From IMG/VR virus record IMGVR_UViG_3300034157_000063: a stretch of DNA of 64,000 nt. One strand, given 5' to 3'. This stretch comes from a virus (taxonomy: Duplodnaviria; Heunggongvirae; Uroviricota; Caudoviricetes). This document shows, piece after piece, positions 3,765-54,454 of this stretch (position 1 is its first letter; each line of letters opens with the position of its first letter). The notes below the pieces were generated by a model that was not told where the DNA came from, ran no database searches, and saw only the letters and a list, made by a program, of their open reading frames with translations. Made by a program: the position numbers and the translations under genes.

Positions 3765-3791
3765 TACCTATCTACTTTACGGAGAGTTCTA

Positions 3792-4385
3792 ATGATTTAT
3801 CTATTTAAGCGAGCCAGCAGTGATTTCAAACGAGTGTTAATGACCCTTGGCTACGAAATTGCTCAAGCTAAAAATGAATATGAAATGAAAAATCATATGT
3901 TGGAATACTTTTCTGAATCGTGTCTGGGTTTGGATGATATTAAACGTGATGAAGAAGTTAGATTTAAACTCAATGAAGTTTTCATGGCTCTTACTGATGG
4001 TGAAATTGATCGAGTAAAGTCTCATATTGAACGTCTTGAACCTGTTGTTAAAGCAATGATTCCCAATAGCCTGCTTGAACTCGTTGGCCTTTATTTTGAG
4101 GGAAAGAAAGTATTTAACTATTCAAACCTTGAGTTAAACGAACATGCTGAATATGCTCGACTGATTTCAATAATTTCGCACCATTATCGTGAAGATGAGA
4201 TTGATAAAGCTGAGTATTTTGAGAAAAGATTGTACGAACTGGTCAGAGTTAGCGAACTTAGTGTGGCGGTTGACAACAAAATGCCTGATGATGAACTTCT
4301 TGATATTTGTGCTGAATACCTTAAAAAGTGTAAAGACCCAGAAGCCAAAATGATTGCTTTTCTTATCAACCAAGCCAAAGCTTAA
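3792..4385 (+). CDS. hypothetical protein
   Basis: 197-aa ORF, SD GGAGAG. Confidence 0.55.
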   Translation: MIYLFKRASSDFKRVLMTLGYEIAQAKNEYEMKNHMLEYFSESCLGLDDIKRDEEVRFKLNEVFMALTDGEIDRVKSHIERLEPVVKAMIPNSLLELVGLYFEGKKVFNYSNLELNEHAEYARLISIISHHYREDEIDKAEYFEKRLYELVRVSELSVAVDNKMPDDELLDICAEYLKKCKDPEAKMIAFLINQAKA

Positions 4386-10158: not shown

Positions 10159-10725
10159 ATGACTATTGAAACTTATAAATTTACTGACGATACTGTCTTT
10201 GAAGCTCTTCAAACTTTTTGTTTGATTAATTCTATCAAAAAGGAAGAGTTCTGTGCAGCACTTCCAGAGATTATGACTCGTGAAATTATTTTTGATAATC
10301 AAACTATTTCGATGGGGCATTGTTTCAAAATAAAATGGAACCATCCGTTTTGTGAGCCGTTGTCTAATTATTTAGAACACCGTTATACATTTGAGAGCCG
10401 ACTCGAAAAAGCACTGACTTGTTATGATGACGTTTTTAATAATCATCCAAGAAAAGACTGTTATTATGTTAATGGACATTATGCTTTTGATATGGATGAA
10501 AGACTGAGAAAAGTTTATTCATTTGATTTTACTGAAGCTGATACAGGGCATGATTATATGAGGCTTCTTGAATTCGATGACAGTGATTTAGTCTCATTGG
10601 AAACTAGAATTTTTGATTACTATTTTCATTATTTTGGCAACTCCAACACACCAGAAGAGTTAAAAAGACCATTAAGTCAATTATCAAAAGAAGAAATATC
10701 GTTACTTCAAATGATTCATATCTAG
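10159..10725 (+). CDS. tail-family paralogue (ends ...EISLLQMIHI)
   Basis: 188 aa. Confidence 0.6.
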   Translation: MTIETYKFTDDTVFEALQTFCLINSIKKEEFCAALPEIMTREIIFDNQTISMGHCFKIKWNHPFCEPLSNYLEHRYTFESRLEKALTCYDDVFNNHPRKDCYYVNGHYAFDMDERLRKVYSFDFTEADTGHDYMRLLEFDDSDLVSLETRIFDYYFHYFGNSNTPEELKRPLSQLSKEEISLLQMIHI

Positions 10726-10791
10726 CTAGATTGTGTGGATTTTTTGTTATTACAATGCTATAATAGCTCATCTATTTTAAAGGTGTTATTG

Positions 10792-11355
10792 ATGATGATT
10801 GAAACCAAAGAGTTCTCACATGACTTGATTTATGATCAGGCCCAAGATTTCTTCCTTTCGAAAGGAATTAATAAAAAATCTTTTAGACTATCACGTCCGC
10901 ACCTTGTTCATCAACAAAATCTAGTCGATCATATAACACTTGAAGAAGGCGAAGCGTTTGGCATTAACCCAGAACATTACGCTTGGAGTGATTTTTTAAA
11001 ATATCTTGAAGAAAAATATTCATTTGAGTCCAAGCTATATAACATCATTAAAGATTATGATGAATTTTTCAATCCTGAAAAAAATGATGAATGTTATAAT
11101 GAGTATGTTTATTATTTTATCAATACCTCTGGCACTATTCAAAAGGTTCATGTATTCGAATTCGTGGAGCTTGAATATGGTGATTATCACATGTCTCTTT
11201 TTGAGGTAAATGATAGCAATATTGAAGAAATGGAAAGACAAGTATTAGATTATTACATTAGTTATTTTGGTAAACCGATTCCAGAAGAACTGATCAAACC
11301 CTTTGCAAGCATGACACCTGAAGAACGTGAAGTCATTCGCATGATTTGCATTTAA
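10792..11355 (+). CDS. tail-family paralogue (ends ...EREVIRMICI)
   Basis: TGcTATAAT at ~10757 lies inside track ORF 10735... The ATGATG at 10792 has an AAAGGTG SD. Confidence 0.6.
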   Translation: MMIETKEFSHDLIYDQAQDFFLSKGINKKSFRLSRPHLVHQQNLVDHITLEEGEAFGINPEHYAWSDFLKYLEEKYSFESKLYNIIKDYDEFFNPEKNDECYNEYVYYFINTSGTIQKVHVFEFVELEYGDYHMSLFEVNDSNIEEMERQVLDYYISYFGKPIPEELIKPFASMTPEEREVIRMICI

Positions 11356-11424
11356 TTGTTGTAAAATCGCTTCTTTTTTGCTATAATATGGCCTTAACAT
11401 TAACCACTTGGAGTTTTAAAATAA

Positions 11425-12075
11425 ATGAAAACATCTACAGCTTATGCTTCGGAAAATACAATCTCTACACGATTGTATAATTTTATCATCGGTGCTGTAT
11501 TGTTGTATGGTTTTTTGATGAACGTTTTTATCGTTAAAACCGTTCCAGTAGCCAGTCTGTTGTCCATCAATATTTGGGTTTTCTTGATTGGTTATTTGGC
11601 AAGCTGCTTGTTTGGTATTTATTTGTTTACCAAATCTGACAACCCTGTTGTTAGCTTTATTGGGTTTAACTTTGTTGCTGTCCCCTTTGGTTTGATTGTG
11701 AATATGGTTACTTCTCAGTATTCACCTGAAATGGTTATCAATGCCATGCAGGTTACTACGGTAGTAACGTGTATTATGATGGTGTTGGGCACTGCCTATC
11801 CTAAGTTCTTTGAAAGTATTGCATCAGGTCTGTTTTGGGGTTTGCTGGCATCTATCGTCGCTGAATTGATCTTGACCTTTGTGTTTAAAATGGACTTGGG
11901 CATTATGGACTGGATTATTGCTGCTATCTTCTGTGGTTACATCGGTTACGACTGGGGCAAGGCTTCTGCACTCCCTAAAACTGTCGATAACGCCGTAGAC
12001 TCAGCCGCAGCTCTGTATATGGACATCATCAACTTGTTCTTGCGAATCCTCAGTATCATGGGCAAGAAAGACTGA
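11425..12075 (+). CDS. Bax-inhibitor-1/YccA (TMBIM) family membrane protein
   Basis: Seven hydrophobic segments. The C-terminal ...ALYMDIINLFLRILSIMG resembles the family signature. Confidence 0.7.
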   Translation: MKTSTAYASENTISTRLYNFIIGAVLLYGFLMNVFIVKTVPVASLLSINIWVFLIGYLASCLFGIYLFTKSDNPVVSFIGFNFVAVPFGLIVNMVTSQYSPEMVINAMQVTTVVTCIMMVLGTAYPKFFESIASGLFWGLLASIVAELILTFVFKMDLGIMDWIIAAIFCGYIGYDWGKASALPKTVDNAVDSAAALYMDIINLFLRILSIMGKKD

Positions 12076-12094
12076 TAAAATGTGTACTGTTTAT

Positions 12095-12118
12095 GGATGG
12101 CTTCGGCCATCCTTTTTT
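12095..12118 (+). terminator. rho-independent terminator
   Basis: GGATGGC-TTCG-GCCATCC followed by TTTTTT. Confidence 0.7.
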
Positions 12119-12137
12119 ACATTTAATGGAGTAACTT

Positions 12138-12872
12138 TTGATGAATGAAATCATTGATGAAGAAACAAAGCAGAAGTTTCCAATTTATGGACTCCTTGAT
12201 TATTTCGTGAGTAATTTTACGGACGAAAATTATGAATATGGAATGGATCAAATGGGCATTTGTCGATATCCTTTGAATTCTGATGGTAACCGTATTGTGG
12301 TGAAACTTGAAGAAGACAGATTTACTTATGGTCTGGATGGCGGAACAGCCACTAAGTCTGAATCAATTGCTCCTTTTCGTAAAGGTGATACACCAAGTTC
12401 TATTTATTTTAATATTTCGACAAAATATGACGATATTTATTCTGAGTATTTTGGTGATTTGTCATCTCCAATGATAGACTTGTTTGTAGATCACACCAAT
12501 AAACACTTAGAGTTGATTAATCAAAAGAAAATTTCAGATGATTATCAATTGCTCATCTGTAAAGATTTTTCAGTGGATGCTAGCTTTAAATATGATCAAA
12601 TGACCAAAAAAATTACAAGAGTTTTATCTATTGTTTTTAGAAGAAACCCTACAGCATCTGAACCCATTCGCAGTGTTCATTGTGTGACTGACAACCTGTT
12701 AACCACTCAGGCTACATTAAAACACATGGATAGTGAGTTTTTTAATCGTTATTACAAAGAAAAAATAAAAGAAGCTTATCCCGATTTAAGCTTTGATCAA
12801 GTTTATGAATTATTAGATCTTTCAAAATGGAATGAACATTTGAATGCTCTTGTAAAGATGACATATTATTGA
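12138..12872 (+). CDS. tail-family paralogue, 'M-x-Y-Y' subgroup (ends ...LNALVKMTYY)
   Basis: 244 aa, SD TGGAGT. Shares 'YxYGxDxxxxxRYPLxxDGxRI' with the next gene. Confidence 0.65.
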   Translation: MMNEIIDEETKQKFPIYGLLDYFVSNFTDENYEYGMDQMGICRYPLNSDGNRIVVKLEEDRFTYGLDGGTATKSESIAPFRKGDTPSSIYFNISTKYDDIYSEYFGDLSSPMIDLFVDHTNKHLELINQKKISDDYQLLICKDFSVDASFKYDQMTKKITRVLSIVFRRNPTASEPIRSVHCVTDNLLTTQATLKHMDSEFFNRYYKEKIKEAYPDLSFDQVYELLDLSKWNEHLNALVKMTYY

Positions 12873-12906
12873 TACAATTAATTAAATCAAAAAAGGCTTA
12901 CTTCTT

Positions 12907-13602
12907 ATGATAAAATCAACAATGTATGGAAATGAAAATAAGTTAAAAGCACTTGGTCACTTATTTTTTTCTAAGTTTTCGAATCAAGACTATGACTATG
13001 GACAAGATGGATTGTCTGTTGTACGTTATCCACTCACCGCTGATGGCAAGCGAATTCATATGTATGAAGTTAATAGCTGGGATGGGGATATTTGTGGCTA
13101 TGATAAGTCTTATACCATTGCCAATATCATTAACTCTAATTGGGATTATGATTGTGATGTTTCTTTTGTTTTGACATCGGATCAAAATGATAACGGAAAA
13201 CCTGTTAAGTTTGATTATCTCTACAAGTTTCATTCTAATGAGTTTTTAGTTCGGTTGAAAAAACACTTGAAGCTCTTGAATGATTCCCCTGAAATGCATA
13301 GAAAACGTGAGTTGGTTGAGTTTGAATCGAACCGATTTAAAGTATCTATTTTCTATCGCTATGATATTTCTACTAAAATAGTTAGTCGTTGTGCAGAGCT
13401 TAGGTTTAAAGCTTTCAATGGAATGCTAGAACATAGGATTACTGTTCTTAATGATGATCATAAATTTTTAGCAGCAATGGATGAAATGGAGCACGAATTT
13501 CAAGAACGTTATTATCGTAATATAATTGAACGTGAAAAAATTGAGCGTGGCACTTTTTTAAATAAAACTGAACAAAATCTTGTTAGAATGGTATATTACT
13601 AA
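12907..13602 (+). CDS. tail-family paralogue (ends ...EQNLVRMVYY)
   Basis: 231 aa. Confidence 0.65.
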   Translation: MIKSTMYGNENKLKALGHLFFSKFSNQDYDYGQDGLSVVRYPLTADGKRIHMYEVNSWDGDICGYDKSYTIANIINSNWDYDCDVSFVLTSDQNDNGKPVKFDYLYKFHSNEFLVRLKKHLKLLNDSPEMHRKRELVEFESNRFKVSIFYRYDISTKIVSRCAELRFKAFNGMLEHRITVLNDDHKFLAAMDEMEHEFQERYYRNIIEREKIERGTFLNKTEQNLVRMVYY

Positions 13603-13605
13603 TAT

Positions 13606-14274
13606 ATGGATATCGGAAAATTCGATTTACCTGACAATATGGCATCCTTTAATTATTATTTAAAGCATTCAGCCAGTAACATGAATTATAGATATCAAAT
13701 ATCTTCTGGGTACACTATTGTTCAGGAAGCTCTAAATCAAGATGGCACACCAAAAACAAGGTCAGGTTATGACAGGTATCATGCCATTGGCAATCTGACT
13801 TATTTTCAACATGATTCAGAGCATGAGTGTTCTTTCGACATAAAACCCAATCTGTTATCAAAAAAAGAATCACCTAGAAAAGTCTATTTTGAGAATGTTG
13901 ATGATTATCATGCCAAACAATTTTTCAAGGTGATTACTAATCACCTTCGTCTTATAAATAAAGGCGATGAAATAAACAAAAAGAAAAATCCGCTGTATGT
14001 TAACCTTGATCATATTGAAATCTATCCAGTTTATGTTTATCATTCATTGCATGGACACATCTATCAAAAAATAGTTGTAAAATTTAAAAAGCATAAAGAA
14101 TTCCCTGAAATTTATATTATTGTGAAGAATAATGACTGTAGTTTTGAGAATGCAGTTAAAATGATTGACAATGAATTTTTTATTAGATACTATTCACAAC
14201 TTATTGAGAAAAAGGACACGACAGAGAAGCTTACTAAATCAGAAAAGCAAATCGTTAAGATGTATTACTATTGA
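13606..14274 (+). CDS. tail-family paralogue (ends ...EKQIVKMYYY)
   Basis: 222 aa. Starts 4 nt after the upstream stop. Confidence 0.6.
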   Translation: MDIGKFDLPDNMASFNYYLKHSASNMNYRYQISSGYTIVQEALNQDGTPKTRSGYDRYHAIGNLTYFQHDSEHECSFDIKPNLLSKKESPRKVYFENVDDYHAKQFFKVITNHLRLINKGDEINKKKNPLYVNLDHIEIYPVYVYHSLHGHIYQKIVVKFKKHKEFPEIYIIVKNNDCSFENAVKMIDNEFFIRYYSQLIEKKDTTEKLTKSEKQIVKMYYY

Positions 14275-14904: not shown

Positions 14905-14935
14905 AAAAAAGAGGCCGAAGCCTCTTTAATTTTCA
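14903..14935. terminator. bidirectional rho-independent terminator
   Basis: A-run, AGAGGC-CGAA-GCCTCT, T-run, between convergent genes. Confidence 0.65.
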
Positions 14936-16127: not shown

Positions 16128-16183
16128 TTTATTTCCCCTTGATAGTTTAGTTTGTTTGTGTGTTAATCATTTATTTTAGGCAT

Positions 16184-16212
16184 AAAAAAACCCAGCCGTT
16201 TAGCTGGGTTTG
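16184..16212 (-). terminator. attenuator terminator in the thrS leader
   Basis: On the minus-strand RNA: CCCAGC-UAAACG-GCUGGG followed by UUUUUUU, ~60 nt upstream of the thrS ATG. Confidence 0.55.
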
Positions 16213-16228
16213 TGTGGTTCCGATTATT

Positions 16229-16306
16229 TTAAGACAGCAACAATCGACCAGCCCAGCTATTGAACTGAGTTGTTGTAGTCGTTGTGTTTGCTGCAAATAA
16301 TTTCAT
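16229..16306 (-). CDS. thrS leader peptide MKLFAANTTTTTTQFNSWAGRLLLS (six consecutive Thr codons)
   Basis: ATG at 16306-16304 with GGAG 9 nt upstream. Codons ACA ACG ACT ACA ACA ACT. UAA at 16231-16229. Confidence 0.55.
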   Translation of the reverse strand: MKLFAANTTTTTTQFNSWAGRLLLS

Positions 16307-16329
16307 CTGAATTTTCTCCAATTACTTAT

Positions 16330-16359
16330 ATTGTGATCTTTATTTTCAAAAATGTCAAC
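16330..16359 (-). promoter_or_regulatory. putative sigma70 promoter for the thrS leader
   Basis: TTGACA (rc of 16354-16359) with a weak -10 (CACAAT) about 18 nt downstream. Confidence 0.35.
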
Positions 16360-30899: not shown

Positions 30900-31430
30900 A
30901 TGAATTCTTCGCTAAGTAAGCTTTTTAAATCACAAAAAAGTGGTAATGTTCACTATTTAGAAACAGACTTAATCGAAGTACCTACCCGTAAGAAACTGGT
31001 TGATTCCCGTTTGATGTTTGAACAAGCTGTTGAAAATCACCATCTTGCTGACACCGCCGAAGCTTTCAAATACTACTCAATCAGTTATGCATTCGCCATT
31101 GACAACATCCTTTATCAGTTTGCAAGCATTCAGCGTCGTATTTCTGCACAAGGTGTTAACAAAGAGAATATCAAACAATTTGGTGAAGCATCAAAAGAAG
31201 CAAAATCAAGTGCATTCATTTACATTCTTCTTCAACAATTTAATACGGGATCAGAGTTGAATTGGAAACCTTTCGTGCGTGGCTACCGTGATGCTGAAAT
31301 GAGAATTCGTGGGATTTGCCAATATATTTATAACGAAAAACATGCTCGACAACTGACAGACTCTATGATTTATACCAGCTTCTGGGAATTAGCCGCAAGT
31401 GAACGTATTGAGCTGCCAGCCGATTTTTAA
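30900..31430 (+). CDS. hypothetical protein
   Basis: 176 aa. TGcTATAAT promoter, SD AGGAGC. Confidence 0.55.
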   Translation: MNSSLSKLFKSQKSGNVHYLETDLIEVPTRKKLVDSRLMFEQAVENHHLADTAEAFKYYSISYAFAIDNILYQFASIQRRISAQGVNKENIKQFGEASKEAKSSAFIYILLQQFNTGSELNWKPFVRGYRDAEMRIRGICQYIYNEKHARQLTDSMIYTSFWELAASERIELPADF

Positions 31431-31527: not shown

Positions 31528-31559
31528 AGAAAAGCATTAATTTAAAAGGAGAAATGTAT

Positions 31560-32474
31560 ATGTTTGGAAATGCTTTTATGATAATATTATTATTCGTATT
31601 TATTGGCTTATTGATTTACTCATGTGTTGTTTTAACCAAAAACAAACATGTTTCAGTAATTGTTACATTTGGTAAGTTTTCTACCATCAAAGAAGCTGGT
31701 TTGTCTTTCAAACTTCCTTGGCCGATTCAAGCTGTTGATAAAGTTGTTCCTTTGAACATTTTACAATTGAGCACTGTTCTTGAATTGAAAACTAATGATA
31801 ACTTATTTATTAAATACCCAATAAACGTTCAGTACCATGTGCTTGACGCTGAGAAAGCTGCTTATGAACTTGATGATCCAGAAACGCAAATCATCAGTTA
31901 TGTTAGCAACCTTGTTCGTTCAGAAGTGGGTAAGAAAACATTCTTGGAACTTTATAGCGTTCGTGATGAAATTCAAGATGTCATTGAAGAAGTATTGTCT
32001 AAAAAGATGGAAGAATTTGGTTTCAAAATTGTTGCTGTTCTAGTTGACGAACCAATTCCAACCAGTGATGTTCAAGACTCATACAACTCAGTAACTGCCT
32101 CTGAGCGTGAAAAAGAAGCGGCCAAGAACCGTGCAGAAGCCTCAAGAATTACTATTGTTGCAGAAGCTCAGGCACAAAAAGAATCTAAGAAACTACAAGG
32201 TGAAGGTATTGCGGATCAACGTCTTGCTATTAGCCGTGGTTTCAAAGAATCTATTGAAAGCCTTTCTGAATCATTGGGTGTATCGAATGAAATCGCTGTG
32301 GCTATGATGCTTCAATTGAATAAGTTTGACACATTGCGTGACGTTGCAAATGGTAAAGGTTCACTCATCATTAGTGATGCAGGCACTAACGCTGAACTTA
32401 AAGAGTTAACTACTTTAGTTGCTGGTCTACGTTCATCTGATCTGGGTAATCACCACCCACACCAAAAAGTTTAA
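31560..32474 (+). CDS. SPFH/band-7 (stomatin/prohibitin-like) membrane protein
   Basis: N-terminal TM helix followed by an SPFH-domain sequence. Coiled-coil 'EKEAAKNRAEA...' C-terminus. SD AAGGAG 8 nt upstream of the ATG at 31560. Confidence 0.8.
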   Translation: MFGNAFMIILLFVFIGLLIYSCVVLTKNKHVSVIVTFGKFSTIKEAGLSFKLPWPIQAVDKVVPLNILQLSTVLELKTNDNLFIKYPINVQYHVLDAEKAAYELDDPETQIISYVSNLVRSEVGKKTFLELYSVRDEIQDVIEEVLSKKMEEFGFKIVAVLVDEPIPTSDVQDSYNSVTASEREKEAAKNRAEASRITIVAEAQAQKESKKLQGEGIADQRLAISRGFKESIESLSESLGVSNEIAVAMMLQLNKFDTLRDVANGKGSLIISDAGTNAELKELTTLVAGLRSSDLGNHHPHQKV

Positions 32475-37010: not shown

Positions 37011-37466
37011 TTAAATCTCTTGATTAATTAAATTGTAAATGTTATTTGAAGCTTTTATTACTTCGTGTAAATAATAAACCCATGATGCAATGATACATAT
37101 AACCATCACAGGCATTGTTACCAGTATCATTACTTGGTTTATTATTACTAAAAAGAAGAAAATCATTTCAGGTAAAGGTATTTTTATTATCAACGATATT
37201 AATGTAGATATAATCAATGGAAGTAATGCTGAAAGCAAAATAATTATTGAAATTAAAAATTTCTTTAAAATGTTTCTAACATGTATTTTTAATACATTGT
37301 CTTCATTTTTTTTGTAGTATTTAATATATATGTATATATTTGGGATGATAATATACAGCAATACCAACGATCCATAAAAAAAAACGGTTAATGGAATGGA
37401 CGTTATTAATATTATCAGTATCAAATATATTTTTTTTAATTGCTTGTAGTCTTTTAATTCATTCAT
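37011..37466 (-). CDS. small 4-TM membrane protein, paralogue 2 of 6
   Basis: 151 aa. Conserved '(L)KxIY...KYYK...SWxYY'. Confidence 0.55.
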   Translation of the reverse strand: MNELKDYKQLKKIYLILIILITSIPLTVFFYGSLVLLYIIIPNIYIYIKYYKKNEDNVLKIHVRNILKKFLISIIILLSALLPLIISTLISLIIKIPLPEMIFFFLVIINQVMILVTMPVMVICIIASWVYYLHEVIKASNNIYNLINQEI

Positions 37467-37476
37467 GATTTTATTT

Positions 37477-37905
37477 TTAAACGTAGTTATTAAATAGAGA
37501 TTTATCTACACTACCAGAAGCTGTAATTAAACCATGTAAGTAATATATCCAACTAGCTAAAAGACCTATAAAAATTGAAGCCATTGATATCATTAACACT
37601 ACATAGCCCGTGCCATTATCTATTTTTGTATAGTTTATAAATAACATTGATAATAGAGGTAAAAATGAAACAAACACGATTATCATCGAAATCACACATT
37701 TTTTCAACATCTCACTGATATGTAATTCAAATGTGCTTTCACCATGTCGTTTATAATATTTACTGTAAATGTAAAGATTAGGTATCAATATATACAAAAA
37801 CAAAAATGGGCCAAAAAATAAGACAGCTATTGGTGATATAGCGGTGAGCATTATCATTCTGGAATATATGTTCTTTAAACATTCGTATTCATTAAAATCA
37901 TTCAT
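37477..37905 (-). CDS. small 4-TM membrane protein, paralogue 3 of 6
   Basis: 142 aa. Confidence 0.55.
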   Translation of the reverse strand: MNDFNEYECLKNIYSRMIMLTAISPIAVLFFGPFLFLYILIPNLYIYSKYYKRHGESTFELHISEMLKKCVISMIIVFVSFLPLLSMLFINYTKIDNGTGYVVLMISMASIFIGLLASWIYYLHGLITASGSVDKSLFNNYV

Positions 37906-38330
37906 GCGTTATCCTCTTTTTTATTAATTATATTAAAATTATTTATTATGCCATATGTGTAGTAAGTCCAAGAACCTAAAAGACCTATTACAAAACCAGC
38001 TACAGCTAAAATAGATAGCCATTGAATTCCATTATCAGTATTATCCATTGTTAACATTGGTAAAAATGAAAATACAAAAATAATCGCAGCAATTAAAAAT
38101 GTCTTCAATATTTTTTTGATGTTTTGTTGGTAACTGGATTCATCATTTGATTTGTAATATTTATGAAATATCATAATATGAGGCGTGATACTGAACAGAG
38201 CCATCACAAAAAAACCTAAGATGTAAGATTTAAATGAAATAACCAGAGCGAGTGATGGCCCTGCAAATGTTAAAAAAATTAATAATTTGTAAAGACTTTT
38301 GATTGCTGGATAATTACTGTTGTCATCCAT
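37902..38330 (-). CDS. small 4-TM membrane protein, paralogue 4 of 6
   Basis: 142 aa. ATGA overlap. Confidence 0.55.
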   Translation of the reverse strand: MDDNSNYPAIKSLYKLLIFLTFAGPSLALVISFKSYILGFFVMALFSITPHIMIFHKYYKSNDESSYQQNIKKILKTFLIAAIIFVFSFLPMLTMDNTDNGIQWLSILAVAGFVIGLLGSWTYYTYGIINNFNIINKKEDNA

Positions 38331-38443
38331 AAGGACTCATCTTAAATGGTTATTTATAACATTATAATATGTCATTTTCTATTTACAATCATTCAACTAT
38401 AAAAAAAGACACCTAAGTGTCTTTGTCATATTGATTTCATGTT

Positions 38444-38881
38444 TTAAGCAATGAATACATTTGTTTTTTTCTTGTTTTTTTCAAATTGATAATATTCTTT
38501 TATCAAAACCACTAAATAATAGCCCCATGCACCAATAGAACCTATAAATTTAATGACCCCAGCAATCATATCCATTGTCGCTGTCATGTCATTGACAACA
38601 GTGTATGAAGTGATTAAAGCTGGGACGGAGGTTAGGAACAAAATAGTAATGGATGTGCTAAAGAAACGCAGTAATTTTCTAATCTCTCTATCAAAAGATG
38701 AGCGAACCAATTCGTTGTAATATTTCATAGACATGATTAAGTTGGCTATTAGAGCGATTGTTAACACCACTGGTAGTCCAAAGGGCAATGAAATGAATAA
38801 TGCCATGATTGGCCCACAGATTGTGAGTGCTATAAAAATTCTATAAATTGTAGTTAATATTGATTTATCCTGACTGTTCAT
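38444..38881 (-). CDS. small 4-TM membrane protein, paralogue 5 of 6
   Basis: 145 aa. Confidence 0.55.
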   Translation of the reverse strand: MNSQDKSILTTIYRIFIALTICGPIMALFISLPFGLPVVLTIALIANLIMSMKYYNELVRSSFDREIRKLLRFFSTSITILFLTSVPALITSYTVVNDMTATMDMIAGVIKFIGSIGAWGYYLVVLIKEYYQFEKNKKKTNVFIA

Positions 38882-38907
38882 AATTTCCCTATTATAATTG
38901 TTTTAAT

Positions 38908-39348
38908 TTATTGTTCATGATATCGAGTGGTATAATCCTTGAAAACTATCAGTAAATAATAGAGCCATCCACACACAATACCTAGTGTATCCATGCCAGC
39001 CGTTAGTATTAAAAACCTTGCCTCATCTTCTGGAATTCCATTTAATGTGTAAAGTGATGGCAAGTATCCAATCCCTAGTACAATCATAGCAATAACAAAA
39101 TATTTCAGTAAGTTTTTAATATCTTTTTGAAATGATGTATTACTTTCTTTCTTGTAATATTTAGCCCATATGACTAGATTACTGACAATCGCCAGTGTTA
39201 ACATAACAGGCATTGCAATCGGTTTTAATGGTGTTAACGCAAATGCTGGCCCCAATAAGGTTAACCACATGACAACTTTATAAATACTTTTTAATAATTC
39301 TCGTTCGCTTTTGGCTTTGACACATTTCTTAAAATTTATTATTTTCAT
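38908..39348 (-). CDS. small 4-TM membrane protein, paralogue 6 of 6
   Basis: 146 aa. Confidence 0.55.
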   Translation of the reverse strand: MKIINFKKCVKAKSERELLKSIYKVVMWLTLLGPAFALTPLKPIAMPVMLTLAIVSNLVIWAKYYKKESNTSFQKDIKNLLKYFVIAMIVLGIGYLPSLYTLNGIPEDEARFLILTAGMDTLGIVCGWLYYLLIVFKDYTTRYHEQ

Positions 39349-42046: not shown

Positions 42047-42661
42047 ATGAGAGATTTAAATTCATTTGATTTCACCACCGTGAAGACCTTTATTCAGGCC
42101 GCATTTCAAAAGAGTGTTGACCTTGGAGCTTTTCAGGATGTTGGCTTTTCAGTGGAAAGCTTTATGAATCGTGTTATGGATAATGGTTTCGAACCCACAT
42201 TTAATTACATGAAATCTCAATCCAATAATTTTGAGCGAATTACATACAGCACAGCGTACCGCCGTAAGTCCAGTAGTGGTAAAGTCGCCAAAACTTCGAT
42301 TATCTACTATCGCTTCGATACCGAATTTGAAGCCCGAGAAGAGGGCGTGAAACACGTCTATTCTGGTAATTTTCTTCGCCTTTGCTGGCCTGTTCATCTG
42401 ATGAATAAAAAAGACCTCTGGTTTGATTTGGATACGGGTGATATTTGGCTCACTTATCGCCATCCTAGTGAGGTTAATGAAAATCATAAAAAAGTGACTA
42501 TCGAAGAACTTCTTAATTTGTTTTATGTCGAAACAATGGGTTCTCTTCATTATATTGTTAACAAAAAAACTAATGTTGGCATGACTAAAAAACTCTTTTT
42601 TGAATTGCCAGTCGAAACCATTCGTTCTCATTTGGCTCTTTGCGAAATGATTGAGGTGTAG
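42047..42661 (+). CDS. tail-family paralogue (ends ...HLALCEMIEV)
   Basis: 204 aa. SD GGAG. Confidence 0.6.
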   Translation: MRDLNSFDFTTVKTFIQAAFQKSVDLGAFQDVGFSVESFMNRVMDNGFEPTFNYMKSQSNNFERITYSTAYRRKSSSGKVAKTSIIYYRFDTEFEAREEGVKHVYSGNFLRLCWPVHLMNKKDLWFDLDTGDIWLTYRHPSEVNENHKKVTIEELLNLFYVETMGSLHYIVNKKTNVGMTKKLFFELPVETIRSHLALCEMIEV

Positions 42662-42662
42662 T

Positions 42663-43472
42663 GTGACAGAGCATGAACTATTAGTAAACCATACTGCTTT
42701 GTTCATCAAGCGGTATAGTGCCATTATACTTGGTAATTTAGACAACGGAACCATGACATATGCCTACACAAAAAATGGTTCATCTCTTATTAAATTTATG
42801 TCGAGTGATTATACATCTTACACTTTTGAACTTTTTCCAAAAGTCTTCTCAGTCAATGAGAAATTTGACTCTGAATTATCACATTACCCAATGAAATTAA
42901 CTGTAGATGGCCCTGATAAAAATGAAAACACTGTTTATAAGGATATTAAGAAGGTGGTTCCCTTTGTTTCAGTTGACTACAAAAAGTCTTTTCAAATTTT
43001 TGATTTTATTAAAGAAGATGATCAATTATTAGGTTCTATAAAATCAATTAAACGCTTTAATTCAATGACAGATGACTTTCAGTCTGTTTTTAATGGTGTG
43101 AAAATAGTACATGAAATCAAGTATGAAAATTTTTACAAAAAAATATACAATCGCTCAAAATTAAACAGTGATATACTCACTTCTTTGTTTTTTGACGATG
43201 AACTTAATATTTTAACTTTATACACGGTGATTTTGGATTTTTCACCACATTCTTTTATTGAAATTAATTTTACTAGTGCAGATAACAAGTATTACGTTTT
43301 TGAAAAAAAGGAATTTTTGACAAAAGATGAACTATTTCAATACATAAAATCAGTTCGAAGACATTTTATACAACGTAGAATTAAGCAATTATTTAAAAAT
43401 TTAGAATTTGAAATTGATTTCGATAACAAATATCAAGAACAAATACAATTATTAGAAATGTTAGTTATATAA
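42663..43472 (+). CDS. tail-family paralogue (ends ...IQLLEMLVI)
   Basis: Track start is TTG 42651. GTG 42663 has a GAGG SD 6 nt upstream. Start is uncertain. Confidence 0.5.
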   Translation: MTEHELLVNHTALFIKRYSAIILGNLDNGTMTYAYTKNGSSLIKFMSSDYTSYTFELFPKVFSVNEKFDSELSHYPMKLTVDGPDKNENTVYKDIKKVVPFVSVDYKKSFQIFDFIKEDDQLLGSIKSIKRFNSMTDDFQSVFNGVKIVHEIKYENFYKKIYNRSKLNSDILTSLFFDDELNILTLYTVILDFSPHSFIEINFTSADNKYYVFEKKEFLTKDELFQYIKSVRRHFIQRRIKQLFKNLEFEIDFDNKYQEQIQLLEMLVI

Positions 43473-43481
43473 GGATACTAT

Positions 43482-44225
43482 ATGTTAGAAGCCATTATTA
43501 ATAAATTTTTAGAACGTTACCACACTGATTTTAGCTTGGGTGGCTATTCCTTACATAAGGTTACTCATTCTCCCAGTATTTCTGTTCTGAATATGCGTTC
43601 TGACGATTATATCTTGAAATTTTCATTCTTTAATGAACTTCCTTTCCGTTTGTTAGTTGACATTCATCGCAGTGATCAATTGAAACTTAATGAAAAAAAC
43701 AAAACCGTTATTTTAAATAGAGAACTCTCTTTTTTCCCTTTTAATAATCATAAACATGAAATTCTAGACACTATTCAAAAAGATATTTGTGAACGTATTG
43801 GTGTCTGCGAAGTGGTTGATGCTACTGATGATCCTACGAAATTGGCTTCTGATAATTTATACAATGCTCGATTTAATAATAAGCTTTTTCAAGTATTACC
43901 TAGTATGAAAAAAACAGTGGGTGGTCAGCAAATATTTCGATTAAATAATTATGTCATTAATGTTACAAGCGATGGTGAAGTATTTTATAGCACTAAAACT
44001 TACTATTCTTTTGATAATGAGTATTTTATTTTTAATAATAATGATGATTTCTACTCTTATTGTGGTATTGATTATACTGAACATGAACTTGAATCGTTAT
44101 TCTTTAAAATCATTGTGAACAGAATTAACAATGAAATATTTAAAGAGACAGAGATTTCTTTAATGCATGAATCGGAAGACTTCATTAAAAAAGCAATCAA
44201 TGTCTATAAAATGATTAAAATTTGA
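43482..44225 (+). CDS. tail-family paralogue (ends ...NVYKMIKI)
   Basis: 247 aa. SD AAGGAT. Confidence 0.6.
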   Translation: MLEAIINKFLERYHTDFSLGGYSLHKVTHSPSISVLNMRSDDYILKFSFFNELPFRLLVDIHRSDQLKLNEKNKTVILNRELSFFPFNNHKHEILDTIQKDICERIGVCEVVDATDDPTKLASDNLYNARFNNKLFQVLPSMKKTVGGQQIFRLNNYVINVTSDGEVFYSTKTYYSFDNEYFIFNNNDDFYSYCGIDYTEHELESLFFKIIVNRINNEIFKETEISLMHESEDFIKKAINVYKMIKI

Positions 44226-44278
44226 TTTATTTTTACATGTTTTTATGATATAATGGGTCATCTTTCATTGGAGATCCT

Positions 44279-45088
44279 ATGGACAATCTATTTATAGAAC
44301 AATTTGCTTCAAATTATTCCGCCAAGCTTTTTGCGGAAGGTTTTGACTATAAAGATAAATCAGTCAGTGAGCCGAAATTTTTTGATCGTAAATTTTTCTC
44401 CGTATTGACCATCCCTAATAAAAATGGTGATATTCTTTATATCGAAGAAACCGCCAAGGAAAATAATAGTAACTCTAAGTCTTATGAACTTCATTTTTCA
44501 TTTAATACACAAGATGATAAAGAAAAGACGGCTCGTATGCTTCGTTACCTTGATAAAATCTTTAATACTAATTTTAATTACATGAAGGCGATTCATGACA
44601 GCTATGTTCAGGCAGGTTTGGATGTAGGTTTATTTATCAAAACGGGTGATGTAGAATTTAAACCCAGTTCTATCCTTTCCCATATGGACACTTCTGTGGT
44701 TAATAAGAAGTTTAATGTAGCCATTCAGAATGTTACCTATAATCCAGTTGTAGCTAAAATCATCAAAACTAAAAAAATTGAGTTAAAAGGTGGTGTTCCT
44801 CAATCTTTTGACGATGGCGAGTTTACTGCTACATTTCAGACAAAAGTATTGTTTCTTGATCAAAGTCCTTTCTTTTTTTATAACAATGGTGAAACGCCTA
44901 TTTTAGTCCATGCCCCCAATAGCAGCATGACTGAGGTATTATCAGTGGGAATGCTTTACACTTATTTTTATGATAGCTTTAAAGACCGTATTGGAAAAAA
45001 ATTCTTGGACATGGATATTGATCTTAAAAGTATCAGTAAAGAATTGTTTGATAGTTATATTGATGTTATTGATATGGCAAAAATTTAA
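44279..45088 (+). CDS. tail-family paralogue (ends ...YIDVIDMAKI)
   Basis: 269 aa. TGaTATAAT promoter, SD TGGAGA. Confidence 0.6.
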   Translation: MDNLFIEQFASNYSAKLFAEGFDYKDKSVSEPKFFDRKFFSVLTIPNKNGDILYIEETAKENNSNSKSYELHFSFNTQDDKEKTARMLRYLDKIFNTNFNYMKAIHDSYVQAGLDVGLFIKTGDVEFKPSSILSHMDTSVVNKKFNVAIQNVTYNPVVAKIIKTKKIELKGGVPQSFDDGEFTATFQTKVLFLDQSPFFFYNNGETPILVHAPNSSMTEVLSVGMLYTYFYDSFKDRIGKKFLDMDIDLKSISKELFDSYIDVIDMAKI

Positions 45089-45114
45089 AATTTAACAATG
45101 GAGTTACAGACATT

Positions 45115-45849
45115 TTGAAAAAGTTAATCATTCCAGTATTTACTAAATTCTTTAAAGAATATTTCAGTGTAGATGTTTTTGTCGAAGAAGTGCCCGCTGT
45201 GAATCCAGTTTTTACAGTGAGTATTTATAATGGAAACAAGAAACAACACCTGCTTATTATTTATATCAATGATAGACAAGGCAGATTACCTATCTTAAAC
45301 GTTTACCATTATAATGGTGAGGGTGAGATTTATTTACGTGAAATGGTTAAAAAAGCTAAACGGGTTGATTCTCACTACACTCGTATTATTAAAATGTTTG
45401 AAAACATACATGAACAATTATCATTATTCAAAATGACCAAATTAGAATCAGAAGACACGATCTTTAATCTTTTTACATCTGATCGAGTTAACAGAGTTAA
45501 TGATTTTAATAAATTGTCAGGGACTGATGTTGCAAAGTTTAAGTCTGTATTAGGCTTCACAACTGTTCGACATGATTTCGTATTTACTATCTACAATGAA
45601 GAGTTATATCTTGATCTTCGATTAAATTGCTCAGTTAATTTCTCAGATAAAATTATCAGCTCACACCCACAATTATTGGAGAATAATCCATCTTATTATG
45701 ATGATTTAGAGAAAGGTCTATATAATTTATCAAGATCATCTATTATTAATAGGATTAGGCAGAATTTAAAAATTACGCTTGATCCAAAAGAAGTCTTAGA
45801 TGAAGATATTGTTCGATATGTTCAACTATTAGAGATGCATAAAATATGA
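45115..45849 (+). CDS. tail-family paralogue (ends ...VQLLEMHKI)
   Basis: TTG start in the track. No in-frame ATG until about residue 77. Confidence 0.5.
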   Translation: MKKLIIPVFTKFFKEYFSVDVFVEEVPAVNPVFTVSIYNGNKKQHLLIIYINDRQGRLPILNVYHYNGEGEIYLREMVKKAKRVDSHYTRIIKMFENIHEQLSLFKMTKLESEDTIFNLFTSDRVNRVNDFNKLSGTDVAKFKSVLGFTTVRHDFVFTIYNEELYLDLRLNCSVNFSDKIISSHPQLLENNPSYYDDLEKGLYNLSRSSIINRIRQNLKITLDPKEVLDEDIVRYVQLLEMHKI

Positions 45850-46598
45850 ATATGAATGATTTATGTGATTCAATTATAGCCAAAATAAAGCCATTTTTTG
45901 AAGAAAATGTACTCGAACCTGTCTTTTTCCAGAAACGGACTAAGGGAGATGTAGGTAGTCATAATGTTTTTCCTGATGTTCGTGTCCTCACTGCTTCAGG
46001 AGGCATTATTTTCAGTTTTATTCTTGAATCGACAAGTGACGCTAAAAGACATTCAATTAATATAGTGATTGGTGACCAAAAGTATTTAGATATCTACAAT
46101 TTATTTGTAAAAGAATGTTGTGTTGATGGTTTTGATTCCTTTTCATTGTTTATTGATGCTATGATTAAAAAAAGCGATCATTTAAAATTTATTAAAGCTG
46201 TCAACATATTACAAGATTCCAAGACAATTGAGTATTCATCAAGTTTGCATGGTGTTATTGATCAACAAACCTATGCAATACTTGAAACTGCTTTTGAGAC
46301 TATTGAAATAAAACAAAGACCTCTCTTTATTTTTGAAAATAACAAATTCTATCTTAATCCAGAATTTATATTTACATTGGATTGTGGTAAATTAAAACTC
46401 ATCAAGAAAACAGAAAATAATGATAAATACATTAAGGATTATGTTTCAAAATGTGCTGATTTATTCTATACACAATATTTGAAATATATACAATCTGCAC
46501 TGAGTGATCTCTATGATATTCCAGTGGATGAGATTTCTAATTGGTCGCCAGAATTATTGATGTCTTATTATCCTGTATTAGCAATGGAGGTTTGTTAA
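45846..46598 (+). CDS. tail-family paralogue, 'YYPVL(A/S)(M/I)E' subgroup (ends ...YYPVLAMEVC)
   Basis: 250 aa. ATGA overlap. Confidence 0.65.
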   Translation: MNMNDLCDSIIAKIKPFFEENVLEPVFFQKRTKGDVGSHNVFPDVRVLTASGGIIFSFILESTSDAKRHSINIVIGDQKYLDIYNLFVKECCVDGFDSFSLFIDAMIKKSDHLKFIKAVNILQDSKTIEYSSSLHGVIDQQTYAILETAFETIEIKQRPLFIFENNKFYLNPEFIFTLDCGKLKLIKKTENNDKYIKDYVSKCADLFYTQYLKYIQSALSDLYDIPVDEISNWSPELLMSYYPVLAMEVC

Positions 46599-47357
46599 AT
46601 GACAACAGAACAATTGATTGAGAGCATGAAGTCAGTTTTAAGCTTGTTTGCTGCTCAACATCTTAATTATCCTGTTATGTTTAAGTCGTCATTAAATAAT
46701 ACTAAGCCTAATGGCATTTCTTTTGATATTTTACATATGCAATCATCTACAGGACAACTTTTATTGTCTTTTATTATTATGAAAGACAGGAGGATCTATG
46801 ATCAAAAGTTTAAATCTATCGAAGTAAAAGTCCACGATGAAAAACATTTAAACATATTGAATAAATTTATAGCTGTGTGTAGTCAATACAGTTCTAATTC
46901 ATTTAATTTATTTATGAATGAAACACTTGAACATACCGATCATTTAAAATTAATAACCGCTATTGATGTATTGCCATTTGAGGAAAGGAAGATTATTGTA
47001 GATGATAAGTATATTAGAGTGGATTTTACTGTCCATGCTATTATGACGACACCTTTTGAAGTCATCAATATTTATAAGATACCTAAATTTATTTTTGAGA
47101 ATAATAAATTTTACTTACATGATAAGTTTAGTTTTACTTCACTAGGTCAACACTATACGTTTACTCAAAAAACAGAAGACGTAGATGTTATGCAGGTTGA
47201 AGTTAAAGAATTCGCTCAGAAATTTTATGAAGATCACTATGAAATCATTACTTCGAAGATTAATGAACTGTATGATGTGCCTTTTACTGAATTTGGCCTT
47301 TGGACTGATGAACAGTTCCGGGCTTATTACCCCGTATTGTCAATGGAACGTTATTAA
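46599..47357 (+). CDS. tail-family paralogue (ends ...YYPVLSMERY)
   Basis: 252 aa. GGAGG SD sits inside the upstream gene's 3' end. Confidence 0.65.
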   Translation: MTTEQLIESMKSVLSLFAAQHLNYPVMFKSSLNNTKPNGISFDILHMQSSTGQLLLSFIIMKDRRIYDQKFKSIEVKVHDEKHLNILNKFIAVCSQYSSNSFNLFMNETLEHTDHLKLITAIDVLPFEERKIIVDDKYIRVDFTVHAIMTTPFEVINIYKIPKFIFENNKFYLHDKFSFTSLGQHYTFTQKTEDVDVMQVEVKEFAQKFYEDHYEIITSKINELYDVPFTEFGLWTDEQFRAYYPVLSMERY

Positions 47358-47375
47358 TGATAGGAACCACAAAAA

Positions 47376-48140
47376 ATGAATGATAATGAATTATGTCAAG
47401 CAATGATCGCAGAATTAAGACCTTTCTTTGAAAAAAACATGAAAGGTTCTGTTATTTTTCATACCCGCACTGGATTGGGACAGTATGCTGGTGGTCGAAC
47501 CATTTGTTGCATAGATGTCAATACGAGTAAAGCTAAGCCTATTTTTCGATTTACTATCAATAACAATATTGAAAAAGGCGATTATGTAGTAAATAATATT
47601 GATTTAGAGATTGATAACAAAAAATATTTGCCACTTTATAATAAGTTTATTAAACACTGCAGTGAACAAAGCACAGATTCTTTTTCATTATTTATGAAAG
47701 CTGCTAGTGAATACAGTGAACAACTAAAAATTATCTCAAAAATAAATGTTTTACCTTTTGCAAAAAGAACATTAAAATTTGGCTCATGGAAAACTCTCAT
47801 GATGGATACAACTCTTCATGCCGAAGTCACAACACCTTTTGAGACTTTCAAAGTTTACAAAAGATCTAAATTTATATTTGAGAACAATCAATTTTATCTT
47901 AATGATGAATTTCACTTCATATCATTTGGCATGGATTTTTGGTTTCAGAAGATCACTGAGCAGGATAGTTTAGTTAAAATGCAGTTGCATACTTTTGCCA
48001 CTCAATTTAATGACCTCCATCAGACACAAATTTTAGGCACAATCATTCGTTTATACAATTTACCTCACACCGAAGTTAATGCGTTCAGTAACGAACAAAT
48101 TATGAGTTACTATCCAGTTTTGGCTATCGAACACTATTGA
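47376..48140 (+). CDS. tail-family paralogue (ends ...YYPVLAIEHY; Met replaced by Ile)
   Basis: 254 aa. Shares 'IFENN(K/Q)FYLN' with the previous two genes. Confidence 0.65.
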   Translation: MNDNELCQAMIAELRPFFEKNMKGSVIFHTRTGLGQYAGGRTICCIDVNTSKAKPIFRFTINNNIEKGDYVVNNIDLEIDNKKYLPLYNKFIKHCSEQSTDSFSLFMKAASEYSEQLKIISKINVLPFAKRTLKFGSWKTLMMDTTLHAEVTTPFETFKVYKRSKFIFENNQFYLNDEFHFISFGMDFWFQKITEQDSLVKMQLHTFATQFNDLHQTQILGTIIRLYNLPHTEVNAFSNEQIMSYYPVLAIEHY

Positions 48141-48178
48141 ATAAATAGTATTACTGTGTTAGAATATCGAATATTTGA

Positions 48179-49459
<1,281 letters not shown>

Positions 49460-50293
49460 GTGTCTAAACTCAATTCAAAAGAAATCTGCCAGCCACTGTT
49501 GGATCATGCTAAAACAGTGCTGTCGGATGGTTTGGATCGCCCTTTTGAACAATACACTGTTGATTATGGACATGATGGTTTTTCAATTTTTAAAAACAGA
49601 AAGACAGGTTACAAATCGAGTGCTTACAACATCCTTAATGCCTATGTGCTACCTTGTAAAAATGGTAACTTCTTAAAAGTAGGCATGGATGGTTCTATTG
49701 ATGACTATAATAACCTTTATTCAACACTTTTTAAAGATCCTATTGTTGATGAAGTGTACCTTCAAGCTGTTATTCAGAAGTTTTTTGATGCCGGGTTAAG
49801 ATGGAACCAGTTTGATTCTGTGGAATACTATCCAAAAGATTTATCCATTGATTCGTTAACTTCTGACGACCATCATCGTAGGAAATCGACTAATAAGAAA
49901 CATTTGGCTATGTTCTATTACTCAGCTCGTAGTCGTAAAGCTGAACAACGCCGTCGATTCAGTAATAGAAAAAGTAAAGCAGCCTATTCAGTCTGTACAA
50001 TGAGTTTGAATATGTCTACTTATACAGGTGAATTGAAGCCTGTTTATGTTTTGAACATACCTTTATTAGCCGATATTAAATTTTCTATTATGGTTGATGC
50101 TAATACTGGCATCAGTGAAGATGATATACAATTGTTGGTTTATAAATATGAACTATGCATTCGCACTCAATTGTATGACATCATTAAACGTAATCTTAGG
50201 CTTAAAGATCATGAATCACTAGGTGAAGTAACCGAATACTCTATGCAACAACTCGTTGATTATGTCATTGTGACAGAAATGGCTTCTTATTGA
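49460..50293 (+). CDS. tail-family paralogue (ends ...VIVTEMASY)
   Basis: GTG start immediately after the serS TAA, with GGAG 6 nt upstream inside the serS 3' end. Confidence 0.55.
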   Translation: MSKLNSKEICQPLLDHAKTVLSDGLDRPFEQYTVDYGHDGFSIFKNRKTGYKSSAYNILNAYVLPCKNGNFLKVGMDGSIDDYNNLYSTLFKDPIVDEVYLQAVIQKFFDAGLRWNQFDSVEYYPKDLSIDSLTSDDHHRRKSTNKKHLAMFYYSARSRKAEQRRRFSNRKSKAAYSVCTMSLNMSTYTGELKPVYVLNIPLLADIKFSIMVDANTGISEDDIQLLVYKYELCIRTQLYDIIKRNLRLKDHESLGEVTEYSMQQLVDYVIVTEMASY

Positions 50294-50344
50294 TTTAACT
50301 CTAAAAATATGGTATAATCTTGCCATATTTTGGAGATTTAATTC

Positions 50345-52697: not shown

Positions 52698-52712
52698 TAT
52701 AGGATATTAATA

Positions 52713-53627: not shown

Positions 53628-53629
53628 CA

Positions 53630-54421: not shown

Positions 54422-54454
54422 TGTTATACTCATTCATTATTTTTGGAGCTTATT

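Follow-up and report, generated by a model that had tools for sequence, protein, structure and literature searches.

The 64,000-nucleotide (nt) stretch of DNA analyzed here (the window; 32.5% GC) comes from IMG/VR record IMGVR_UViG_3300034157_000063, classified in the Caudoviricetes. On its minus strand it carries a gene for a truncated threonyl-tRNA synthetase (ThrRS), thrS, preceded by a short upstream open reading frame (uORF) with a run of threonine codons and by an intrinsic terminator. The uORF lies 102-179 nt 5' of the thrS start codon (ATG at 16127) and has a 5' untranslated region of ~20 nt. From the sequence alone, an original prediction had described a Shine-Dalgarno (SD) motif in this region (GGAG, 9-nt spacer), the uORF and six Thr codons, and minus-strand reading and translation recovered each at its predicted position (Table 1). 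Two perfectly complementary 8-nt arms (16252-16259 and 16201-16208) and the intrinsic terminator, which completed that description, agree with it base for base: UAGCUGGG at 16259-16252 faces CCCAGCUA at 16208-16201, with region 2 of the leader extended to 8 bp by the preceding U at 16259. No other run of at least five Thr codons occurs in any of the six frames of the window.

The terminator scan delimits a stem and loop at 16211-16188 (10-bp stem, 4-nt loop) with a U tract ending at 16184; the stability of the terminator is -14.5 kcal/mol, and its 5' arm is complementary to uORF codons 17-19. Folding of the whole leader (16340-16120, 221 nt) yields -42 kcal/mol (z = -2.7 relative to dinucleotide shuffles), and the fold contains both the terminator that had been proposed and a long anti-antiterminator hairpin (1:2) that the original prediction lacked. 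In the latter, GCAGCA, ACAACGACUA (the first Thr codons) and CUCAGUU pair with AGCUGGG, UGGUCG, UUGU and UGCUGU; the Thr codons thus double as the 5' strand of the hairpin. The model predicts that this hairpin sequesters region 2 when the Thr codons carry no ribosome, and that it sets the default state of the leader. The spacer before thrS is AT-rich and unpaired in the fold. Because a terminator at 14927-14908 follows thrS, the gene appears monocistronic; with a promoter 5' and a terminator 3', the unit therefore consists of promoter, leader, putative attenuator, one gene and terminator.

Table 1. Features of the thrS transcription unit in the window.
Feature	Position	Strand	Basis
sigma70-like promoter, TTGACA-17-CACAAT (predicted)	16330..16358	(-)	consensus scan, 10/12 positions
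Shine-Dalgarno GGAG	16316..16319	(-)	read from sequence; 9 bases 5' of uORF ATG (16306)
leader-peptide uORF, 25 codons + UAA	16229..16306	(-)	translation, MKLFAANTTTTTTQFNSWAGRLLLS
six consecutive Thr codons (regulatory codons), ACA ACG ACU ACA ACA ACU	16268..16285	(-)	translation
anti-antiterminator hairpin (1:2)	16234..16294	(-)	minimum free energy and centroid folds
region 2, AGCUGGG (antiterminator 5' arm)	16252..16258	(-)	complementary to 16208-16202
intrinsic terminator (3:4), AAACCCAGCU-AAAC-GGCUGGGUUU + UUUU	16184..16211	(-)	terminator scan
thrS ribosome-binding site AAGGGG	16135..16140	(-)	sequence; 7 bases 5' of ATG
thrS, truncated threonyl-tRNA synthetase, 392 amino acids	14949..16127	(-)	Pfam, TIGR00418
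terminator after thrS, bidirectional hairpin	14908..14927	(-)	terminator scan

That the regulated gene encodes a ThrRS, as originally predicted, is upheld by TIGR00418 (thrS; 394.2 bits against a cut-off of 383.65), but the product is not an ordinary synthetase. Only model positions 173-535 are covered, and the 392-amino-acid (aa) protein, which corresponds approximately to E. coli ThrRS residues 243-602, has neither a TGS nor an editing (N2) domain. Its Pfam matches (tRNA-synt_2b and HGTP_anticodon) comprise the class II catalytic core and the anticodon-binding domain only. It aligns end to end with the crystallized E. coli delta-N fragment 242-642 (PDB 1EVK/1EVL); that fragment is a laboratory construct, whereas the window enzyme is natural. 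The zinc-ligand motifs CP.H and QDD.H and the LHH His are kept, aligning with E. coli C334, H385 and H511, as are motif 2 (FRNE.SG) and motif 3 (GS.ER); with catalytic and zinc-binding residues intact, the protein is, from its sequence, a plausible working synthetase. The thrS frame is closed upstream, so that an N-terminal extension is impossible, and a Pfam scan of the window's open reading frames (ORFs) found no TGS or editing domain encoded near thrS.

A database search returned more than 100 homologs of 357-415 aa (57-99% identity), so the short form is stably kept within a clade and does not mark a pseudogene. This clade is divergent and stand-alone, with ~40% identity to ordinary bacterial ThrRS. 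A scan of genome contigs with the full ThrRS alignment, which used universally conserved peptides, returned only ordinary full-length ThrRS (39-45% identity); these loci served as negative controls and were also the source of the Burkholderiales leader described below. A single-protein scan of viral contigs gave no match, and the phage and plasmid collections gave no DNA match; protein matches in these collections were all below 60% identity (22-43% for the best ones), and the three that were inspected were full-length enzymes or host DNA. Loss of the N-terminal part leaves E. coli ThrRS able to charge tRNA(Thr) but unable to clear Ser-tRNA(Thr); this delta-N enzyme is reportedly active but mischarges serine (Dock-Bregeon et al. 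2000). Selection probably acts against impaired editing in housekeeping ThrRS, in the view given in PMC4787780.

Conservation and alternative folds of the leader

Relatives of the window locus were retrieved through the ThrRS protein and not through the leader, using a clade-specific ThrRS peptide segment (alignment A3) and exact-protein look-ups; conservation of the leader is therefore not circular. The resulting set holds 30 distinct upstream regions, from uncultivated genomes that resemble those of giant phages, which range from 22 to 67% GC, with ThrRS identities of 54-99%. Each of the 30 has a uORF in which 4-10 Thr codons stand in a row (median 6; GTG start in two) as well as an intrinsic terminator, and the element always stands directly 5' of thrS. 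As a control, an ACN x5 run was found upstream in only 1 of 75 ordinary full-length thrS loci. Codon positions 1 and 2 are invariant within the runs and position 3 is free: the 195 Thr codons comprise 70 ACA, 60 ACC, 38 ACU and 27 ACG, with at least three different Thr codons used by 25 of the 30 leaders. Outside the run the peptide diverges freely (e.g., MNKFVFNTTTTTTLLKAGLVGYCLE, MSFFATTTTTTTSGFGPRGSVLR, MNILFAGTTTTTTTTTTMVGRSCVRRFS). A constant ACN with a free third base is, judged from these codon counts, the mark of selection on what the ribosome reads and not on a DNA repeat.

The spacing of the parts is also constrained across leaders. Region 2 starts 0-13 nt past the Thr run in 29 of the 30 (28 nt in L118), and longer runs go with an earlier start; in 19 leaders, 14-20 nt separate its end from the stop codon. 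The uORF stop lies 12-38 nt before the terminator. Sites of the form TTGAC(A/T)-17-TAnnnT occur 5' of most relatives' leaders. At about five loci (L095, L100, L105, L116 and L117) a mere 6-7 nt separate the -10 box from the uORF ATG and an SD motif is absent, an arrangement that suggests translation of these uORFs from leaderless mRNA.

The terminator stem was assessed on a structure-blind MAFFT alignment, where 90.8% of its positions are paired, compensatory changes occur at 7 of 9 pairs, and the covariation score was reached by none of 500 shuffles. For the antiterminator, the duplex between region 2 and the terminator 5' arm was compared with dinucleotide shuffles in each leader separately. 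In the window this duplex has an energy of -13.0 kcal/mol (z -3.2, p 0.005), and the native duplex beats the shuffles in all 30 leaders (mean z -2.3; p <= 0.05 in 17 of 30), which bears out the conserved complementarity that the original prediction called for. When regions 2 were swapped among leaders, each terminator arm preferred its own (mean rank fraction 0.19 versus 0.5 expected; Wilcoxon p = 2e-6). The co-varying arm and partner pairs are visible by eye (CCCAGC-GCUGGG, UCCAGC-GCUGGA, CCUAGU-ACUAGG, CCCAGUG-CACUGGG), and a further type combines CCGCCCGG-type arms with CCGGGCGG-type partners.

Folding of the leaders gives the same two alternatives. In full-length minimum free energy (MFE) folds the terminator is intact in 30/30 leaders, and the Thr codons pair with a GU-rich segment downstream of region 2 in 27/30. 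A masked fold, in which a ribosome was placed over the second Thr codon and the terminator 3' arm was omitted as if untranscribed, pairs the terminator 5' arm with region 2 in every one of the 30. The mutually exclusive antiterminator and terminator that had been predicted thus find support in the shuffle and swap tests as well as in the masked folds. A covariance model (R1) built from 12 low-GC leaders scores the whole window leader at 98.9 bits and recovers non-seed members at 44-75 bits.

Proposed mechanism and competing explanations

A conserved, covarying device of three structures supports the ribosome-stalling attenuator before a ThrRS gene that was originally proposed. On these sequence data we consider it very probable that the leader is a functional Thr-responsive, classical ribosome-mediated transcription attenuator controlling an editing-less ThrRS. 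The sequence analysis shows the individual elements, how they are conserved and covary, and which alternative folds are predicted; from these we infer the course of stalling, termination and read-through as well as the physiological purpose. A host-type RNA polymerase would start at the sigma70-like promoter and transcribe the 25-codon leader. With Thr-tRNA(Thr) plentiful, the ribosome would translate the whole Thr run and reach the UAA; in its wake, the six Thr codons, together with the seven bases that follow them, would pair with AGCUGGG and the GU-rich stretch (1:2), the terminator arms would then pair with each other, and transcription would end at the U tract, ~60 nt before thrS. With Thr-tRNA(Thr) scarce, the ribosome would stall on the first Thr codons and cover the 5' strand of 1:2, and the free AGCUGGG would capture CCCAGCU once this had been made; no terminator would form and thrS would be transcribed. 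If the leader were not translated at all, 1:2 would form and transcription would terminate. Since the run mixes several Thr codons, the signal would be the overall charging of tRNA(Thr), i.e., threonine supply or ThrRS activity, and not that of one isoacceptor. The purpose, in our reading, would be an on-demand back-up synthetase that is otherwise kept off because Ser-tRNA(Thr) is expected from an enzyme without an editing domain.

Several points weigh against this interpretation. Counted column by column on the MAFFT alignment (A4), the antiterminator is weakly supported, with 58.9% of positions paired and a score reached by 10 of 500 shuffles. The weakness is attributable to register, region 2 being one base off in several sequences of both the MAFFT alignment and the covariance-model alignments (A7, A8), and support for the antiterminator was therefore taken from the alignment-free shuffle and swap tests. 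The antiterminator core of 7-8 bp is also less stable thermodynamically than the terminator, which requires a kinetic switch of the kind that other attenuators use. Furthermore, a ribosome with the stop codon in its A site would leave region 2 uncovered; repression therefore requires, as we assume, that 1:2 form faster than 2:3. Finally, if the replicon is a phage and its own RNA polymerase is in use at that stage, then intrinsic termination and coupling to translation might not apply.

The explanation that survives best beside ours keeps the mechanism and changes the natural signal: instead of a lack of threonine, the leader would sense that the resident ThrRS had been poisoned or lost, perhaps through an inhibitor like borrelidin or obafluorin, a defence of the host or a shut-off induced by the phage. 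On this view the truncated enzyme would serve as a resistant synthetase or as a substitute. A divergent, stand-alone ThrRS clade that shares ~40% identity with the ordinary bacterial enzyme and is encoded in ORFan-rich, phage-like replicons would suit such a role, as would a mixed Thr run that senses overall charging, and the indolmycin-resistant trpRS1 of Streptomyces coelicolor is described as an auxiliary synthetase under ribosome-mediated attenuation (Vecchione and Sello 2010, as cited in PMC4787780). No inhibitor biosynthesis genes were recognized in the window, and we regard this signal as possible, though unlikely.

Could the uORF and terminator instead be an independent small gene for a protein or RNA, with thrS expressed from its own promoter in the 60-nt spacer and no attenuation involved? 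Terminated attenuator RNAs do act in trans elsewhere, as PMC6614838 describes for rnTrpL, and the spacer is rich in AT. However, the promoter scan found no promoter-like site between 16184 and 16127 on the minus strand, the peptide is not conserved outside the Thr run, and the element is always immediately 5' of thrS. The covariation of region 2 with the terminator arm and the downstream pairing of the Thr codons would, moreover, be needless in a free-standing gene, which makes this arrangement very improbable.

We give a similarly slight chance to a Thr run that acts as a nascent-peptide or general translation-stress sensor, in the manner of the ermC or topAI uORFs, and answers ribosome drugs or slow translation instead of Thr-tRNA. 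Regulatory uORFs that sense antibiotics exist, as PMC12121999 reports, but here only the amino-acid identity of the run is conserved, its flanks and length vary, and the regulated gene is the synthetase for exactly threonine. A chance co-occurrence of an ACA-rich repeat with a terminator has nothing in its favor beyond the low complexity of ACA/ACN repeats, is already contradicted by conservation in 30/30 leaders over 22-67% GC with synonymous variation and by the absence of Thr runs of at least six codons from all 200 Markov-1 simulated windows, and can be given practically no weight.

Known leaders of synthetase genes and the position of this element

Rfam, which the original prediction had named as a check, did not place the element in a family of known leaders. 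At gathering score the whole window matched only two tRNAs, with no T-box match; Thr_leader (RF00506) did not match the element at gathering score or at E <= 10, and no Rfam match was found in the relatives' leaders. Phe_leader (RF01859) scored 22.2 bits (E 0.16) on the correct strand, but its gathering score is 55, so that the element is not a member; the score reflects similarity in shape alone.

Devices of this kind are familiar, with synthetase genes among their known targets, and the proposal has more precedent than the original prediction implied (PMC1262725, PMC2965389, PMC8079986). The E. coli thr operon leader (thrL) shares with the proposed element a Thr-codon leader peptide, an intrinsic terminator, an alternative antiterminator and the sensing of Thr-tRNA charging by stalling; however, thrL also has Ile codons and controls the thrABC biosynthesis genes, whereas the regulated gene here is a synthetase. 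Leader-peptide control is recorded for pheST in gammaproteobacteria and for trpS and leuS in Streptomyces (PMC1262725). The E. coli pheST attenuator (pheM leader) is, in the account given by that source, a case of leader-peptide attenuation of an aminoacyl-tRNA synthetase operon, as proposed here, but its regulatory codons are for Phe and its target is the housekeeping two-subunit PheRS. In Streptomyces, classical or proposed attenuators likewise stand before synthetase genes (trpS/trpRS1 and leuS), among them an inducible auxiliary paralog, trpRS1, whose control by attenuation is credited in PMC4787780 to Vecchione and Sello (2010). Leader peptides of Streptomyces are also reported to be translated from leaderless mRNA, as is apparently the case in several relatives of the window element.

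Two further precedents concern thrS and hisS paralogs. A thrL has been proposed before S. lividans thrS, with two Thr codons and no clear intrinsic terminator (PMC8079986); it precedes a full-length thrS, whereas the leaders described here combine 4-10 Thr codons with a canonical terminator and precede the gene for a truncated enzyme. In Bacillus, His leaders of hisS paralogs (Naville and Gautheret 2010; PMC2965389) resemble the window element in that a run of cognate codons controls a synthetase paralog, but they differ in their His codons, in their Firmicutes hosts and in that some of the regulated paralogs are non-canonical (hisZ) (PMC2965389).

Control of ThrRS genes through their leaders can also be achieved by other means. 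B. subtilis thrZ is, as cited in PMC4787780 from Putzer et al. (1992), a normally silent second ThrRS copy. The T-boxes of B. subtilis thrS and thrZ resemble the proposed attenuator in that low tRNA(Thr) charging blocks a terminator before a ThrRS gene; unlike the window element, the T-box senses by direct RNA-tRNA contact and has no translated uORF. The E. coli thrS operator likewise controls a ThrRS gene via its 5' leader: ThrRS represses translation through mimics of the tRNA(Thr) anticodon arm beside the ribosome-binding site. In contrast to that operator, the spacer before thrS in the window is unstructured, and the signals are a uORF and a terminator. With respect to the enzyme, crenarchaeal ThrRS-cat also lacks a cis-editing domain (Shimizu et al. 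2009, as cited in PMC4787780), but it works with a separate editing protein, whereas no editing-domain gene was seen in the window.

Neither a thrS leader peptide with a Thr run nor a phage-borne leader-peptide attenuator was found in the literature searched, most subscription-journal papers lying outside that search. New here are a canonical long-run Thr attenuator dedicated to thrS, the natural delta-N enzyme to which it is coupled, conservation over a wide range of GC and a phage-like setting.

The ordinary thrS loci contained a different leader. At 18 Burkholderiales loci (L002, L005, L006, L008, L009, L011, L015, L017, L019, L021, L022, L023, L027, L031, L033, L038, L051 and L071), a conserved uORF of the form M(V)MTPRT(T)(T) and a strong intrinsic terminator lie directly 5' of the full-length housekeeping thrS; examples are MVMTPRTTTTTPTRV in Roseateles violae and L008 at about 2125-2250. 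As in the window, a short uORF with Thr codons is followed by a terminator before thrS, but the Burkholderiales leader has a conserved MTPRT motif with 1-5 Thr after the Arg, and its enzyme is full-length. It did not match the window-element covariance model at E <= 1, it has no Rfam match, and no description of it was found in the literature searched.

The replicon, a second attenuator-like unit and wider meaning

From its gene content the replicon looks phage-like (a giant phage or a similar element) and unlike a standard bacterium. About 10 of 74 window ORFs match Pfam. SD-type motifs precede 38 of the 74, against a background of 4%, and expression is therefore prokaryotic. In addition to ThrRS the window encodes SerRS, TyrRS, tRNA-Pro, tRNA-Lys, a divergent NAD ligase and a Pol-beta-like protein, whose homologs among the phage records searched are mostly in large or huge phages of 156-735 kb. 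No capsid, terminase or portal gene could be identified with confidence in the window by profile searches; a single ORF whose identity stayed unassigned has a weak PHROG portal match (2e-9). The neighbors of thrS in 22 other loci are equally poor in known families, and ankyrin repeats recur among them.

A syntenic relative (L172, IMG/VR entry IMGVR_UViG_3300031133_000383; 437,043 bp) shares the ligase, the Pol-beta-like gene, thrS and flanking genes at 23-84% identity. Other syntenic relatives sit on larger contigs (L083, Ga0247725_1000001, 1,539,155 bp; L085, Ga0308423_1259934, 1,851,360 bp; L087, Ga0308158_10000001, 1,859,102 bp; L107, Ga0308158_10000004, 1,463,929 bp). The largest phage on record has 735 kb (PMC13359090), and relatives' contigs of 1.5-1.86 Mb are more than twice that size. 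Candidates for the nature of this lineage are a giant phage, another giant element, a cellular lineage and mis-assembly. On another contig, a tRNA with anticodon CTA (an amber suppressor; tRNA-Pyl by ARAGORN) at L096:3648-3723 lies in a tRNA cluster beside the truncated thrS and may point to TAG recoding, which some large phages are reported to use.

No codon-run leader was found for the other two synthetase genes in the window. SerRS (48188-49459, +) has only 48 nt upstream; TyrRS (62533-63791, +) is preceded by a 17-codon uORF (62384-62437, MNASNTFHFQKSFTVRY) with neither a Tyr run nor a terminator. The tRNA-Pro and tRNA-Lys genes, considered as a further candidate, both follow their promoter directly. 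A putative recurrent promoter motif, TGTTAGAAT, was discarded, its three matches against 1.7 expected not being significant.

Tandem arrays of paralogous ORFs (140-300 aa, no known family) occupy 42651-55252 (+), 37011-39348 (-) and 10159-14274 (+); three consecutive genes at 45846-48140, for example, are mutually 32-36% identical, and SerRS is embedded in the largest array. The ORFan context also includes membrane-quality-control genes of a cellular type, namely an SPFH/Band 7 protein (31554-32474, +) and an S49 (SohB-like) peptidase (56410-57294, +) that scores as a phage head-maturation protease in PHROGs as well; an NfeD-domain match possibly lies in the ORF at 30900-31430 (+). The window further encodes Bax1-I and NUDIX proteins.

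The covariance model also matched a second site at one of the relatives (L095:3815-3911, 36.6 bits). There, ~470 nt downstream of the truncated thrS, lies a second attenuator-like unit (L095:3722-4318; LNFM01002013.1) with a promoter and a uORF (3785-3859) that reads MFTKFSDDRMFDDTKFLVGKFVSF. A strong terminator at 3880-3911 has a 5' arm to which the stretch UUUUUGGUAGGG is complementary (z -3.4, p 0.006), and directly 3' of that terminator stand tRNA-Arg(ACG), tRNA-Asp(GTC), tRNA-Met(CAT) and tRNA-Asp(GTC), which the uORF codons Asp-Asp-Arg-Met-Phe-Asp-Asp mirror. This sequence arrangement suggests leader-peptide control of tRNA genes, as a lead from a single locus. The other contigs with P0095 share the same neighbors and offered no new variant of this tRNA leader.

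Two cases, the Thr run before ThrRS in the window and ~30 relatives and the tRNA cluster at L095, underlie a wider view that we put forward tentatively and with somewhat less than even confidence: a phage-like, ORFan-rich lineage with very large replicons (0.4-1.9 Mb) may read the charged-tRNA pool of its host through codon-specific attenuators and induce its own translation genes upon shortage. If true, amino-acid-sensing attenuation would be described for the first time in a virus, and so would control of tRNA genes by a leader peptide in any system. A ThrRS without editing should mischarge serine, and expression limited to emergencies fits the proposed counter-selection of misacylating housekeeping ThrRS (PMC4787780). 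As a family of ~110 nt that spans 22-67% GC and shows three-way covariation, the leader would be usable as a synthetic switch responsive to threonine or to ThrRS inhibitors. Large phages and related elements carry synthetases and tRNAs, on whose regulation little has been reported; a conserved Thr-specific attenuator would show that at least one such gene is expressed on demand, via the charging of host Thr-tRNA, and would give a testable handle on why large phage-like elements carry translation genes.

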